This document shows, piece by piece, positions 25,007 to 30,377 of a stretch of 55,526 nt of DNA. The stretch is taken from positions 1-55,526 of the forward strand of contig DATGZA010000077.1 of the NCBI GenBank assembly GCA_035297365.1, read 5' to 3'. The translations under genes were made by a program, and so were the position numbers. Each line of letters opens with the position of its first letter. The stretch's first letter is position 1. Below the pieces are notes generated by a model. It was not told the DNA's origin and made no database searches. It worked only from the letters and a program-made list of their open reading frames with translations. The DNA is from Nitrososphaeraceae archaeon (lineage in GTDB: Archaea; Thermoproteota; Nitrososphaeria; Nitrososphaerales; Nitrososphaeraceae).

Positions 25007-27442
25007 ATGAATAACAATGAAAAAAAATTGAATTATAAGTTACTATGTCTATCTTTCTTCATATTTATTTTTGTCATTTGTATTTTCTCTCCTTATCATG
25101 CATCTTCTGAAGTAGATGTTGTTAATAACGATTCTAAATCCCTAATATTTTCAGAGGATTTACAAAGAAACTTCACGCTATTTAACAACCTCGAAAGAAT
25201 TCTCACAAAGATAAATTTGGCAGATGATAGTTTTGAGTCTGGTAATATACACGATGCTTTTTCATATGCATATTTTCCCCATCAGGTGATTTTACCATTA
25301 ATAAAAGATGAATTGTTATTAATCGATCCTATGTTGTCTTCAAAATTAGAACATTTGTTGACGGACCTTCCAATATATCTTGTCAATATTAAACCGGAGG
25401 GGGATTTGGTGAGGAAAACCTTTTCAGAAACACGAACTACGATTGAATCAATTGAAAATAATTTAATCAATATAAAAAGTCTTGATTCAAAATATTTTCT
25501 AATTCAAAGTTCTATTGTGATACTGAGAGATGCTAAATCAGTATTAGGAAATATCAAATCAAACCAATCTCAACTGGAGAGTGAGCTATATTATCAAATT
25601 ATCGACGAACTTGTTAATAGATCTGAATATCAAATTAGCCGCATTTCTAATTCAATTCCTAGTCAAGAATTTGATTCTGTTTCGGATCTGTATTTGCAGA
25701 TAGGAAATTATACTGCAAACCATGATTATAATGCTATTTTTAAATCAATGAATATTTTAGAAAAGGAACTAATGAAATTATCTAAAAGTTCTTTATCCAA
25801 AAGTCTTCCTTTAGAGATCCAAAATTATTTCTCTAATATTGATTCTCTATTAAACATTGTAGTAAACGAAATCAAGGACAACAATGACTATAAAAAAGCA
25901 GATAAGGCTGCTATTTCAGCATACTTAGATAATTATGAATATCTTGAAGCCTCAATAGAACAAATTGATCCAGAACTAATGTTGGAAATTGAATTAAATA
26001 TGAGGGAAGGATTAAGACAAATGATAAAAGACAACGCACCATCAGAACAGATTGAATTCTTTGTAAATGAAATTTTACAAAAACTGGGCAAAGCAGAGAA
26101 TGTTTTATTAAATGACGCATCAATCACAACTGTAGTCACCAACAGAGGGATCGTCAATCATTATAATGGCAATCAACAGAGCAATAATTTAGCAGATATA
26201 AATAAACTTAGTAAAGGGTTCGGAATTTTTCAAGGTGAAAAAAAGAATATTGGCGAAGCTTCTGAAGAAGAGAAAAGCGAGGTAAGAAGCGATGTAGATC
26301 AAATTAGATTAAGTTTACAAGAAGTATTAAATTTCTATAAAGAAGACAAATATGAAGAATCTCTAATAACCGCACGCTCTGCATATTTAGATAGTTATGA
26401 AAAGATAGAGTTACCATTGAGACCAATTGATCCTGATTTCACGCTAGAAATGGAAATTAAATTCGCAGAGCTTAGAAACTTGATAGAAAAGCATGCCTCA
26501 TATACAGAAGTCATGAGCAAAACAAGTGAAATTCAATCGGGTCTAGATGAGTCAGAAAGACTCGTATCAGGATTAGGCTCAATAGCACCAGGAATAGCCT
26601 TTTCGTCTTCATTTTCTATAATTTTTAGAGAAGGATTGGAATCTGCTTTGATCATTGGTGCAATAACTACATATCTAGAAGCTTCACGAAACGAAAAATT
26701 CAAAAAACATGTTTATTTTGGAATTATTCTTGCAGCTGGTGCTACAGCTATTACTTGGTTTGTTGCGTCATTTCTTATAGAAATATCTGGAGCAAGTAAA
26801 GAACTTATTGAGGCAATAGCAGGAATATCTGCCGTTGCAGTACTTTTCTGGGTATCATTTTGGATTTTGAATAAAATTGAAACCAAGAAATGGATTGAAT
26901 TCGTGAAATCCAAAGTTTGGAAGGCCACAGCAACCGGAAGCGTGGTGGTCTTTGTGATGCTTTCGTTTTTTACAGTATATAGAGAGGGTTTTGAAACTGT
27001 TCTGTTTTATCAAGCAATGTTTTCTTACGCAAAAAATATGGAATTATTTGTTACGTCTGGATTGATTATTGGACTCATTGTGATAGTCTCGATCGCGTTC
27101 ATAATCAAGAAGTTGGGCAAGAAATTGCCATTAAGGGTTCTTTTTGGATTTACGATGGGGGTTGGTGCTTATATGTCTATTACTTTTTTTGGTAATGCCA
27201 TTCGTGAATTTCAAGAGATTGGATACATCTCTACAACCCATTTATTTGGAATAATTCCTAGATTGGATGTCAATCTCGCAACAATGACCGGAATACATCC
27301 TACTTTGGAGAGTATTTTAGGACAAGTCATTTTGTTATCTGTATATCTTGTTGCCTCTATGTATATTCTCTTTATTCAACCAAGGAAAAAGAAAATGATA
27401 GAGTCATCACGTAAATCAATGTCAGATTTCAAGCAAAAATAA
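25007..27442 (+). CDS. FTR1-family high-affinity iron permease with large extracellular N-terminal region
   Basis: REGLE and REGFE motifs in the C-terminal TM domain; signal peptide; AYLDxYE repeats. Confidence 0.92.
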   Translation: MNNNEKKLNYKLLCLSFFIFIFVICIFSPYHASSEVDVVNNDSKSLIFSEDLQRNFTLFNNLERILTKINLADDSFESGNIHDAFSYAYFPHQVILPLIKDELLLIDPMLSSKLEHLLTDLPIYLVNIKPEGDLVRKTFSETRTTIESIENNLINIKSLDSKYFLIQSSIVILRDAKSVLGNIKSNQSQLESELYYQIIDELVNRSEYQISRISNSIPSQEFDSVSDLYLQIGNYTANHDYNAIFKSMNILEKELMKLSKSSLSKSLPLEIQNYFSNIDSLLNIVVNEIKDNNDYKKADKAAISAYLDNYEYLEASIEQIDPELMLEIELNMREGLRQMIKDNAPSEQIEFFVNEILQKLGKAENVLLNDASITTVVTNRGIVNHYNGNQQSNNLADINKLSKGFGIFQGEKKNIGEASEEEKSEVRSDVDQIRLSLQEVLNFYKEDKYEESLITARSAYLDSYEKIELPLRPIDPDFTLEMEIKFAELRNLIEKHASYTEVMSKTSEIQSGLDESERLVSGLGSIAPGIAFSSSFSIIFREGLESALIIGAITTYLEASRNEKFKKHVYFGIILAAGATAITWFVASFLIEISGASKELIEAIAGISAVAVLFWVSFWILNKIETKKWIEFVKSKVWKATATGSVVVFVMLSFFTVYREGFETVLFYQAMFSYAKNMELFVTSGLIIGLIVIVSIAFIIKKLGKKLPLRVLFGFTMGVGAYMSITFFGNAIREFQEIGYISTTHLFGIIPRLDVNLATMTGIHPTLESILGQVILLSVYLVASMYILFIQPRKKKMIESSRKSMSDFKQK

Positions 27443-27974: not shown

Positions 27975-30377
27975 TTGGAGATGATCAGAGGTGCATTAAG
28001 AACTATCAGGATTCAAAATTATTTAACCAGACCCCATCTACAATCACTTAGTTTATATTATTATGATCTAACCAGAATTTTCTTCTTAATACTATTCTTT
28101 TCTGGAATTTTATCTACAGGATGGTTTGGTATTCCATTAGCTCCTCATTATTTTACTGATCATGACATTACTGGTTTTCATATTTTATTTACGATTTTGA
28201 GTTTTCTAAGTACTATATGGGGAATAATGGCTTACAGAGAATTTACCAGATATGTGGACAATATCTTGTTAGCAAGGGATTTATGTAAAAAATTAGATCC
28301 AACAATTGGAGATTATAATTATTCAACATTTAATCCGGCAACAAAAAAATATGTAAACGGTTTTGTGCATTTTGGTCCTACGGATTTTTGGGATCGTGAA
28401 ACATTAGTGCCTGATTGGTTAGATAAAGGAAAATATTGGCATATTTTTCTCAGTCTTCAAACAAGTGATCAAGAAATTATTCTTAAGGTTGATAATGATT
28501 CAGATCTTCTTTTTTTTTCAGGCAAAAAGATAGTGGCGAATACTTCGCGCGAATTTTTAAAAGGCGAAAATTTTCTTAAAAAAAAATATCAATATATCGT
28601 CACTATTCCTCAATGGTTAGTAATGACTACAGATGCTGAATATTTTACAAACAATGAATTGAATATCAACGCTACTGATTTTGGTATATTAATTAATTCT
28701 ATCAATAAACAAATATCTCTCGCAACCAATATTATTACAGAACATGAAAAAAAAAGAATCAAATATTCTTGGATATTGAGTGCGATTACTAACTATCTTT
28801 TTCAGAGTTTGCCTATTAAGATCCTGTATAAAGAAATATATAGAAAAACTCTCAAATATATGCCCACACATGCTAAACAGATTATTGATGAAACTAATCT
28901 AAATCTTTCATATGTTAATCTTGATGAACTAAGCGAGTCATTACTCATATTAGCAAGAATGAAAAATATTAAACCAAACAATATTGAAAAAATTCGATAT
29001 CTTATTTTATTCCTAAAAAATATGTACGAGAAACAAGGTTTGGGCGAGGGCTCAAATCGTTACCATAATTTCCATCATAGTTTAGAGGTTTCTTATGTAA
29101 CTTTACAGATATTACCGAAAGAGTTGCATGGGCATTATTTTATTTGGGAAGATTATGAATTTTTATTGATTGCTGGTTTATTGCACGATTATGATCCATA
29201 TCAACAAAATTATAGGACCAGTATAGGATTATTTAGATTTGATGGACCTAAGGTTGAAAGAACAGTATCGATTCTGAGTGATATGAGAATTATTGATGCA
29301 TACTATAGCATGGATGAAATAGAATTCAAGCATTATTTTCAGCAAAATCAAAACCAACTTCTTCCTCCAATAGATTATGTAACCACTCATGCAGAATATG
29401 TAAAATCGGGTAAACTGATTCAGGCCATCATAGTGGAAGCTATGATTTGGAGAACAGATTATCCTTTCAAACAGAAGCTTACATCTATGAAAAAGTACGT
29501 CTATCTCTTAGGATTGATAAATGATGCAAGTAAGAGAGAAAAATATGATCTTATGTCACAAATTCTGTGGCTGGCTGATTTGTCAGTGACGTATATGGGT
29601 TCGGATCCTATTAGTACTTGGGAACGGGTAACCAATCTGTACAACGAATTATTTCTCCCAAAATTTGAAGCTATCTCTAAAACAGACAAATTCTTTTCTG
29701 AATTTATGGATATAGATATTTTCAAGGAATTAATAAACAATAGAAATTTTCCTGATATCTTTAGACAAAGATGGAACTTAGTATATCAGTTTTATCATGA
29801 AGGTAATTCGTCAAATCAAATCAACAGAATAATTGTAAAGGCCAAAAAATCTTATTCTAAAATAAATTTAGAAATAGGTTTAAAAACTGGAGACCTTTTG
29901 TTTCGTGTATCATCTGATCATCCTGAAGAATACTTCATTGGAATAGATACAGACCAGGAATCGGTAATAAATATAAAAAATAGAATTGCGGTCCTAAAGC
30001 CACAAAATGCAACAATTTTTTGGGGTGATGCAATAAAATTATTACCTAATATTTATAATAATTCAATAGACAATATTTTTTTTAATTTTTCTACACCTGC
30101 TGGCGATCGAATTGATTTAGATTTAGAAATTAATAAATTGCACTTAATTTTTCATGGTGTGTCGACTGCATTAAAAACTACTGGAATATTTCAACTATTA
30201 ATCAAATTACCTCAATCAGATGAATTTGTTATTAAGATAGTTTCAATCGCAGATCGGTATGGATTGCAGATATGTCCTTTGGAAGAACATTATGTTTATT
30301 TTCCGAAATACTCTATTCCCAAAGGATATTTTACAGATAGCACTATTTCGGTACTTCTATTTAAGTTGAAAACATAG
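27975..30377 (+). CDS. Membrane protein with HD/PDEase-like domain and C-terminal SAM-methyltransferase-like fold
   Basis: Two N-terminal TM helices; YHNFHHSLEV, AGLLHDYDP, WLADLS; C-terminal LEIGLKTG...FIGID...GDA...SIDNIFFNF. Confidence 0.75.
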   Translation: MEMIRGALRTIRIQNYLTRPHLQSLSLYYYDLTRIFFLILFFSGILSTGWFGIPLAPHYFTDHDITGFHILFTILSFLSTIWGIMAYREFTRYVDNILLARDLCKKLDPTIGDYNYSTFNPATKKYVNGFVHFGPTDFWDRETLVPDWLDKGKYWHIFLSLQTSDQEIILKVDNDSDLLFFSGKKIVANTSREFLKGENFLKKKYQYIVTIPQWLVMTTDAEYFTNNELNINATDFGILINSINKQISLATNIITEHEKKRIKYSWILSAITNYLFQSLPIKILYKEIYRKTLKYMPTHAKQIIDETNLNLSYVNLDELSESLLILARMKNIKPNNIEKIRYLILFLKNMYEKQGLGEGSNRYHNFHHSLEVSYVTLQILPKELHGHYFIWEDYEFLLIAGLLHDYDPYQQNYRTSIGLFRFDGPKVERTVSILSDMRIIDAYYSMDEIEFKHYFQQNQNQLLPPIDYVTTHAEYVKSGKLIQAIIVEAMIWRTDYPFKQKLTSMKKYVYLLGLINDASKREKYDLMSQILWLADLSVTYMGSDPISTWERVTNLYNELFLPKFEAISKTDKFFSEFMDIDIFKELINNRNFPDIFRQRWNLVYQFYHEGNSSNQINRIIVKAKKSYSKINLEIGLKTGDLLFRVSSDHPEEYFIGIDTDQESVINIKNRIAVLKPQNATIFWGDAIKLLPNIYNNSIDNIFFNFSTPAGDRIDLDLEINKLHLIFHGVSTALKTTGIFQLLIKLPQSDEFVIKIVSIADRYGLQICPLEEHYVYFPKYSIPKGYFTDSTISVLLFKLKT

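Follow-up and report, generated by a model that had tools for sequence, protein, structure and literature searches.

Signals carried by cyclic AMP (cAMP) and cyclic GMP (cGMP) are ended in animals by class I cyclic-nucleotide phosphodiesterases (PDEs), whose eukaryotic members (PF00233) include PDE1-11, RhoPDE, and the kinetoplastid and yeast enzymes. Conserved in class I PDEs are the motif 'ATD' and, around the last metal ligand, 'xDLS'; their substrate pocket has a base-reading glutamine and a hydrophobic clamp. Among bacterial proteins, the 7TMR-HD protein PgpH is a membrane-bound HD phosphodiesterase of cyclic dinucleotides. In archaea, cAMP has been measured, while a 2023 review states that no archaeal protein making, degrading, or binding cAMP has been characterized (PMC10249747), and one review sentence credits PF00233 with 'a few examples' in bacteria and archaea. 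Here we describe a gene located at 27975-30377 on the forward strand of a 55,526-nucleotide stretch (hereafter the window; contig DATGZA010000077.1 of assembly GCA_035297365.1) from a soil ammonia-oxidizing archaeon of the family Nitrososphaeraceae, the product of which has a core resembling the animal enzymes and is a testable candidate for an archaeal cyclic-nucleotide off-switch. An earlier inspection of the letters alone (the sequence-only reading) had taken the product for a membrane-bound class I PDE-like domain fused to a degenerate methyltransferase fold and had called such signaling little described in these archaea, which the review bears out.

We favor, with moderate confidence, the view that the product is a metal-dependent phosphodiesterase anchored in the membrane, whose substrates are probably 3',5'-cyclic nucleoside monophosphates (cNMPs), and that it carries a non-catalytic pseudo-methyltransferase module. 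Directly supported are an intact and conserved gene, a fold resemblance specific to class I PDEs, invariant metal-site residues, degenerate methyltransferase motifs, and co-occurrence with cyclases. The gene is a single intact open reading frame (ORF) of 800 aa counted from a TTG, its end coordinate including the stop codon. Because a database protein with 99% identity (P0002, 798 aa) starts only at residue 3 of this ORF, the ATG at 27981 is the likelier start. The features of the gene are as follows.

27975..30377, + strand: whole gene, 800 aa from TTG or 798 aa from ATG 27981; co-linear ortholog in 149/151 family genomes.
28074..28142, + strand: predicted hydrophobic helix 1 (residues ~34-56), with the conserved motif LSTGWFGIPLAP after it (hydropathy; conservation).
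28173..28235, + strand: predicted hydrophobic helix 2 (residues ~67-87; hydropathy; conservation).
28236..28874, + strand: juxtamembrane domain (residues ~88-300), modeled by AlphaFold2 (AF2) as a small beta-sheet between long helices.
28875..29819, + strand: class I PDE-like HD domain (residues ~301-615), from AF2, VIA, Foldseek, and a profile match to PDE5.
29061..29078, + strand: YHNFHH, in which H364 is the proposed general acid and H368 a proposed metal ligand; the motif pairs gaplessly with YHNWRH of PDE5.
29184..29198, + strand: HDYDP, with H404 and D405 (proposed metal ligands) and D407, from alignment with PDE5 and family conservation.
29451..29465, + strand: RTDYP, including T494 and P497, both invariant even in distant relatives.
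29574..29585, + strand: ADLS, with D535 as the proposed last metal-binding Asp (13/13 invariant; at least 90% across distant relatives).
29820..30374, + strand: degenerate TrmB-like (Methyltransf_4) Rossmann domain (residues ~616-800), from Pfam; the least conserved part (0.46).
29877..29891, + strand: remnant of S-adenosylmethionine (SAM) motif I, G635-L-K-T-G639; throughout the family, K, Q, or R stands in for the middle Gly of GxGxG.

The central domain carries the argument. An AF2 model of residues 290-620, made from a 31-row alignment, reached a predicted local distance difference test score (pLDDT) of 90.5 and a predicted template-modeling score (pTM) of 0.90, and its 16 helices by DSSP agree in number with the compact, all-helical class I domain of 16 helices described in PMC5617230. 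The model was compared with 48,161 representative chains by VIA-align, a method independent of Foldseek. Class I PDEs took ranks 1-17 (Z 14.5-18.2, 242-265 residues aligned, root-mean-square deviation 3.8-5.1), comprising RhoPDE, PDE9, 5, 7, 4, 2, 3, 8, and 1, the Leishmania and T. cruzi PDEs, and yeast PDE2. Generic HD hydrolases followed after a gap (2pq7, Z 11.4; YpgQ, 10.6; GppA, 10.1; SpoT, 9.8; HD-GYP, 8.1; SAMHD1, 7.8). A caution given with VIA is that helical folds may reach Z ~13 through arrangement alone; the present matches lie above that value, extend over almost the full domain, and come from a single family. Foldseek against the PDB returned only class I PDE catalytic domains among the matches listed (template-modeling scores 0.41-0.58), the best being RhoPDE 5vyd (E 2.7e-4), with PDE9 6lzz at 0.55/0.57. 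A family profile matched PDE5 chains with an E value of 3.5e-4 over ~125 residues, and a profile of the HD domain only matched PDE5 at 4.4e-4 and PDE10 at ~3e-3. The PDE5 alignment pairs YHNleHsLE with YHNWRHAFN and LLvAaLLHDYDpq with LLIAALSHDLDHR, and is gapless between them. In view of these structural rankings and the PDE5 profile matches, the resemblance to class I PDEs, as seen in model and alignment, is specific and goes beyond the shared HD core.

With the eukaryotic class I PDEs, the archaeal domain is predicted to share the helical architecture over ~245-265 of 331 residues, as well as the motif order YHNxxH, HDxD, TD, and ADLS. The bacterial HD-GYP phosphodiesterases of cyclic dinucleotides likewise combine an HD metal centre with a membrane anchor and an off-switch logic, but their structures match much less well (Z 7.1-8.1 versus 14.5-18.2) and the GYP motif is absent from the archaeal protein.

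The motifs lie exactly where the sequence-only reading had put them, with YHNFHH at nt 29061, HDYDP at nt 29184, and WLADLS from nt 29568, corresponding to residues Y363-HNFH-H368, H404-D405-Y-D407-P408, and W532-L-A-D535-L-S. Among 117 full-length relatives, YHN[LF]HH occurs in 115, and the eight commonest variants of the HD motif, which account for 110 sequences, all read HDYDP. Across relatives down to 20-27% identity, H368, H404, D405, P425, T494, P497, and Y540 are invariant, and H364, D407, P408, R493, and D535 are at least 90% conserved. Judged from these alignments, such conservation is not chance. The core H-x3-H...HD...D appears in class I order and spacing, with H364, H368, H404, D405, and D535 all present and conserved, D535 being assigned as the last ligand by motif order, not by superposition. 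By order again, RTDYP may correspond to the 'ATD' and ADLS to the 'xDLS' of class I PDEs. As for the HD superfamily (PF01966) as a whole, the H...HD...D metal-binding motif is conserved on a helical core and other HD hydrolases match the domain model at Z 7-11 in VIA, while the Pfam HD model stays below its cut-off for this domain (13.5 bits versus 22).

Distant relatives of the HD region include the stand-alone ~280-aa proteins P0168, P0176, and P0180, and an HTH-HTH-HD protein, P0175. In P0172, a 593-aa 'HD domain-containing protein' from an Elusimicrobiota metagenome-assembled genome, two tandem PDE-like HD copies stand behind a signal-like N-terminus, the second copy with YNRYEH in place of YHRYEH.

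The host genome (G000; a draft of 110 contigs, 97% complete) offers a candidate source for the presumed substrate. Thirteen of its class III cyclase (PF00211) matches, in ORFs 227-540 aa long, exceed the Pfam cut-off, and genomes of the same genus have 4-34 each; the cyclase loci include L021 (G000:C25:6567-10037) and L022 (G000:C10:5537-8389). No match for DAC, GGDEF, RelA_SpoT, or CYTH and no class II PDE was found in this genome. The only match to the CpdA-like class III PDE model (PRK11148), at G000:C75:103548-104108, scored 46 bits against a cut-off of 225, and belongs to a distant metallophosphoesterase with one TGA inside. By these sequence searches, then, cNMPs are the only known nucleotide messengers for which the host genome yielded a synthase, and a canonical PDE is not evident there. 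Class III cyclases are also mentioned among family-specific core clusters by a 2025 comparative study (PMC13577086).

Co-occurrence was tallied over the same 201 genomes of the order (PDE-like A4 profile, E<=1e-20; PF00211, E<=1e-5), the tallies including an unpublished cyclase-positive genome of family f7 (G250). Both the PDE-like domain and a cyclase were present in 99 genomes, the PDE-like domain without a cyclase in 0, a cyclase only in 50, and neither in 52. By family, the counts were the following.

f1: PDE-like domain 40/40; class III cyclase 40/40.
f4: PDE-like domain 8/9; class III cyclase 8/9.
f9: PDE-like domain 11/11; class III cyclase 11/11.
f13: PDE-like domain 39/40; class III cyclase 40/40.
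f7: PDE-like domain 0/13; class III cyclase 13/13.
f10: PDE-like domain 0/40; class III cyclase 35/40.
f15: PDE-like domain 0/15; class III cyclase 1/15.
The other 13 families (32 genomes): PDE-like domain 0; class III cyclase 0.

The PDE-like domain is confined to cyclase-bearing genomes, which fits a functional link.

Several points weigh against a cNMP phosphodiesterase. Formal membership of class I fails by signature, because the Pfam PDEase_I model (PF00233) remains below its 24.8-bit cut-off (15.7 bits with the whole protein, 18.8 with the domain alone, 16.7 in the genome scan) and PROSITE PS00126, which PMC5617230 and PMC10865986 print as H-D-[LIVMFY]-x-H-x-[AG]-x(2)-[NQ]-x-[LIVMFY], matches 0/117 full-length and 0/7 distant relatives, the archaeal protein reading HDYDPYQQNYRT. 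The PF00233 match itself (E 0.012) covers residues 363-407, that is, model positions 1-45 of 238 only. While eukaryotic class I PDEs read HDxxHxG, this predicted enzyme of an archaeal host has HDYDP, with P408 in the position of the second His of HDxxH; a glutamine switch is not evident, no conserved Gln that could read the base being seen across distant relatives in the C-terminal half of the domain. For the class I assignment made by the sequence-only reading, the fold, the YHNxxH/HD/ADLS order, and the PDE5 profile match speak in favor, whereas the PF00233 cut-off was not reached and PS00126 was not matched. No PF00027 cNMP-binding domain was found in the host genome. The PDE-like domain is not the only possible off-switch, because f7 (0/13) and f10 (0/40) are rich in cyclases without it, and the 99 co-occurrences may amount to one or two events, because the four positive families may form one clade. 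Enzymatic activity and ligand binding are predictions from sequence and model. Short contigs from four soil RNA libraries (three studies) map to parts of the gene at 95-100% identity and a depth of 2-10; they agree with transcription without proving it, as coverage is shallow and carried-over DNA could account for them, and, being partial, they cannot give transcript start, strand, or level, while the uncovered parts carry no meaning. Operon logic was rejected as a functional clue, since the neighbors change between genera.

The main rival draws on the same points. In it, the protein is an active hydrolase of the HD/PDE fold whose substrate is not a 3',5'-cyclic mononucleotide but, for example, a 2',3'-cNMP, a linear oligonucleotide, or a phosphodiester close to the membrane, for instance a head group of the inositol-phosphate or glycerophospho type; we regard this as possible, though less probable than the reading that we favor. 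Outside the metal core, the residues of the class I signature are missing (PS00126 in 0/117, PF00233 below cut-off) and no conserved glutamine-switch candidate was seen, which would suit such an enzyme. So would the membrane anchor and the gene order, with myo-inositol-1-phosphate synthase immediately downstream on the same strand in 7/7 same-genus and 2/9 other-genus loci, and PDE-related folds with other substrates do exist (the PDE domains of the Legionella SidE family reach Z 7.4-7.9 in VIA). However, cNMP PDEs match much better (Z up to 18.2) than any other HD hydrolase does (<=11.4), the synthase is not a neighbor in 7/9 other-genus loci, a soluble paralog and stand-alone relatives lack the membrane anchor, and no DAC, GGDEF, or RelA_SpoT synthase was found in the host genome. 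A catalytically dead scaffold or receptor that binds nucleotides only seems very improbable to us. P408 replaces a His conserved in class I PDEs, and one accessory domain already looks like a pseudo-enzyme, but among relatives ranging from 20% to 99% identity H364 and all four proposed metal ligands vary little or not at all, as would be expected if selection maintained an active site.

The N-terminal part would tether the presumed phosphodiesterase to the membrane. The two transmembrane helices seen by the sequence-only reading were recovered in a Kyte-Doolittle scan as exactly two hydrophobic segments, centered on residues 41-47 and 76-77, with none elsewhere. K/R outnumber D/E before helix 1 (4 versus 2) and after helix 2 (5 versus 4), against 0 versus 2 in the short outward loop of ~10 residues. 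Because of this weak positive-inside bias of the hairpin flanks, we infer that the N- and C-terminus, together with the three globular domains, lie on the cytoplasmic side. In 11 full-length members (the truncated rows P0073 and P0077 were excluded), mean pairwise identity is 0.73 in the hairpin region 25-90, the best-conserved part, compared with 0.59 in the juxtamembrane domain, 0.62 in the PDE-like domain, and 0.46 in the methyltransferase-like domain. By this measure, no part of the protein is more constrained than the hairpin and its LSTGWFGIPLAP loop. For a mere anchor, such conservation of a hairpin and short loop (LSTGWFGIPLAPxYF; window 28074-28235) is unusual. Control by a membrane cue, as the sequence-only reading had also suggested, would be possible given this conservation, but the outward loop offers only about 10 residues for it. 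RhoPDE and the Giardia PDE likewise have an N-terminal membrane anchor and a C-terminal catalytic domain. Eukaryotic PDEs carry GAF, PAS, REC, or UCR domains, whereas the archaeal protein would instead use the juxtamembrane domain and the pseudo-methyltransferase.

The juxtamembrane domain, which the sequence-only reading had left as a domain of unknown type, comprises ~210 aa with no recognizable fold or family. Its AF2 model (residues 85-302) is of moderate confidence (pLDDT 76.6, pTM 0.69). Against the 48,161 chains, VIA gave a best Z of 5.6 with helical hairpins alone aligned, Foldseek against the PDB a best E of 0.1, Pfam a best E of 0.028, and the ESM Atlas no usable match; failed matching of this kind does not make the fold new.

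The C-terminal domain looks like a pseudo-enzyme that has lost its SAM-binding and catalytic motifs, because GxGxG is absent, D658 is found in the window protein only, the PDPW region is not conserved within the family, and this is the least conserved domain. Its TrmB-like but degenerate nature, with GLKTG for GxGxG and PDPW lost, had been recognized from the letters, and Pfam Methyltransf_4 (PF02390) indeed scores above cut-off (E=8.3e-12, 45.3 bits versus 24) over residues 629-708, model positions 3-83 of 173. NCBIfam TrmB equivalogs reach 22-43 bits against cut-offs of 112-402 (TIGR00091, 42.7 versus 112.65). The domain aligns with the Rossmann folds of TrmB and KsgA, and the TrmB motifs 'EIG', 'GD', and 'ID..NFS.P' are still recognizable, but unlike TrmB it sits at the end of a membrane protein and falls far below the equivalog cut-offs. 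Family motif I reads [G/E]-x-[K/Q/R]-x-[G/C], and GxGxG was found in 0/117 relatives in their last 200 residues. With TrmB chain 1yzh, 'NFSTPA' of the window protein aligns with 'NFSDPW' of the NFxDPW catalytic loop.

These data bear on whether the protein is bifunctional, its C-terminal domain being either still an active SAM-dependent methyltransferase or a sensor of SAM or S-adenosylhomocysteine (SAH) that gates the phosphodiesterase. The Methyltransf_4 score, the FWGD and SIDN motifs conserved within the family, and the alignment of D658 with the ribose-binding Asp of 1yzh speak for it. Yet GxGxG is missing in all 117 relatives, K, Q, or R taking the place of its middle Gly. For the acidic residue at the end of strand 2, the 10 further full-length members that were compared have G or S instead of D658, and neither the unconserved PDPW region, the low identity of the domain (0.46), nor the equivalog scores favor an enzyme, so that we consider bifunctionality unlikely. 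Control by SAM/SAH, as the sequence-only reading had proposed, is not borne out by the missing GxGxG and the unconserved D658 in this least conserved of the domains.

The host also encodes a soluble paralog (G000:C7, L009:1010-2524, - strand, 505 aa), which consists of a PDE-like HD domain and a GNAT-like C-terminus (Acetyltransf_1, E 0.0014, below cut-off) and carries YHNIYH, HDYDP, and RTAYPF. Its orthologs, ~440-540 aa long, are spread over four families of the order and are found in other lineages of ammonia oxidizers. This group (P0182 cluster, 'HD domain-containing protein [Candidatus Nitrosotalea sp.]') shares YHNI.H, HDYDP, RT.YP, and D..GY with the window protein, occurs in the same genomes, and likewise ends in a domain from a cofactor-dependent transferase family. 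It differs in lacking the transmembrane hairpin and the juxtamembrane domain, in its GNAT-like rather than TrmB-like C-terminus, and in its wider spread, its identity to the window HD domain being ~20-22%.

A fusion of transmembrane, HD, and methyltransferase parts in a draft genome of 110 contigs could be an assembly or gene-calling artefact, as the sequence-only reading had warned. That explanation is already refuted and deserves practically no credence, since the same frame recurs in genomes, database clusters, and DNA runs. A co-linear full-length ortholog is present in 149/151 family genomes (146/148 without the three unpublished genomes G130, G073, and G111, all with a match), in 18/18 genera, and in 101/102 high-quality genomes. 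The frame of 780-850 aa recurs open and without stops, single-contig genomes included. Single genomes from each of 16 other families of the order yielded no full-length protein with this query, and the fusion was found in the host's family only. A word-indexed search returned 683 proteins at E<=0.001, independent database clusters holding the fusion; the 120 listed are mostly of 750-830 aa with a query coverage of 93-100%, and a handful are of 576-675 aa with 72-82%. An exhaustive HMMER search of 1.84 billion representatives with residues 1-620 gave only 69 proteins at E<=0.001, among which the strong matches are full-length relatives or fragments of those. In DNA runs of several studies, 85-99% of the sampled words of the stretch are present. 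In G017, a genome of the same genus (99% complete, 10 contigs), the ortholog (G017:C10:1023430-1025838, 88-92% identical) is in four pieces; the breaks are TGA, TAG, and TAA stops, and it may be a pseudogene or reflect assembly errors.

The neighborhood is fixed within the genus, where the order FTR1-like permease, small winged helix-turn-helix protein, target gene, inositol-1-phosphate synthase, and TrmB-type regulator is kept in 7/7 loci. At nine loci of other genera, a nitroreductase lies upstream in four, SMC downstream in three, and inositol-1-phosphate synthase downstream in two. The nitroreductase-family gene is directly upstream and co-directional in L013, L014, L017, and L020, with an N6/N4 DNA methylase before it in three of them, and the SMC gene adjoins the 3' side of the ortholog on the same strand in L012, L015, and L017 (3/9). 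In the window, the gene at 25007-27442 (+) encodes 811 aa, of which residues 536-715, in the C-terminal third, match the FTR1-type iron permease (E 3.9e-18); its N-terminal part of ~500 aa is without a Pfam match, and the protein is kept beside the target within the genus.

In the mechanism that we propose for the membrane-anchored phosphodiesterase, the two-helix hairpin would attach the protein to the inner side of the membrane, with the lineage-specific ~210-aa domain, the catalytic domain of class I PDE architecture, and the TrmB-derived Rossmann domain following in this order in the cytoplasm. H368, H404, D405, and D535 would form the metal centre and H364 would donate a proton, as in class I PDEs. 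The most likely substrate would be cAMP and/or cGMP from the class III cyclases of the host, making the protein a signal off-switch, and the Rossmann domain would most likely be a structural or regulatory pseudo-enzyme module. We infer the substrate, the metal use, the topology, and the roles of the accessory domains.

Relatives are named 'hypothetical', 'HD domain-containing protein [Nitrososphaeraceae archaeon]', or 'tRNA G46 methylase TrmB' in their sources, and standard annotation gives no PDE flag for this protein. Literature searches of openly available papers for archaeal class I or thaumarchaeal PDEs gave no description of this family, and the core-cluster tables of PMC13577086 may include the gene. 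An architecture of transmembrane hairpin, domain of no known family, PDE-like domain, and pseudo-methyltransferase would be new for PDEs. We suggest tentatively that PDE-like proteins provide the missing off-switch for an expanded network of class III cyclases in ammonia-oxidizing archaea, an off-switch which in the soil family would be membrane-tethered and carry two new regulatory modules, the fold-less juxtamembrane domain and the pseudo-methyltransferase. If this is true, the family would also be relevant to the prokaryotic ancestry of the catalytic domain of eukaryotic PDEs. As a conserved, single-copy candidate phosphodiesterase with a confident model, the protein is a concrete assay target for archaeal cyclic-nucleotide turnover, in organisms that matter for soil nitrification.

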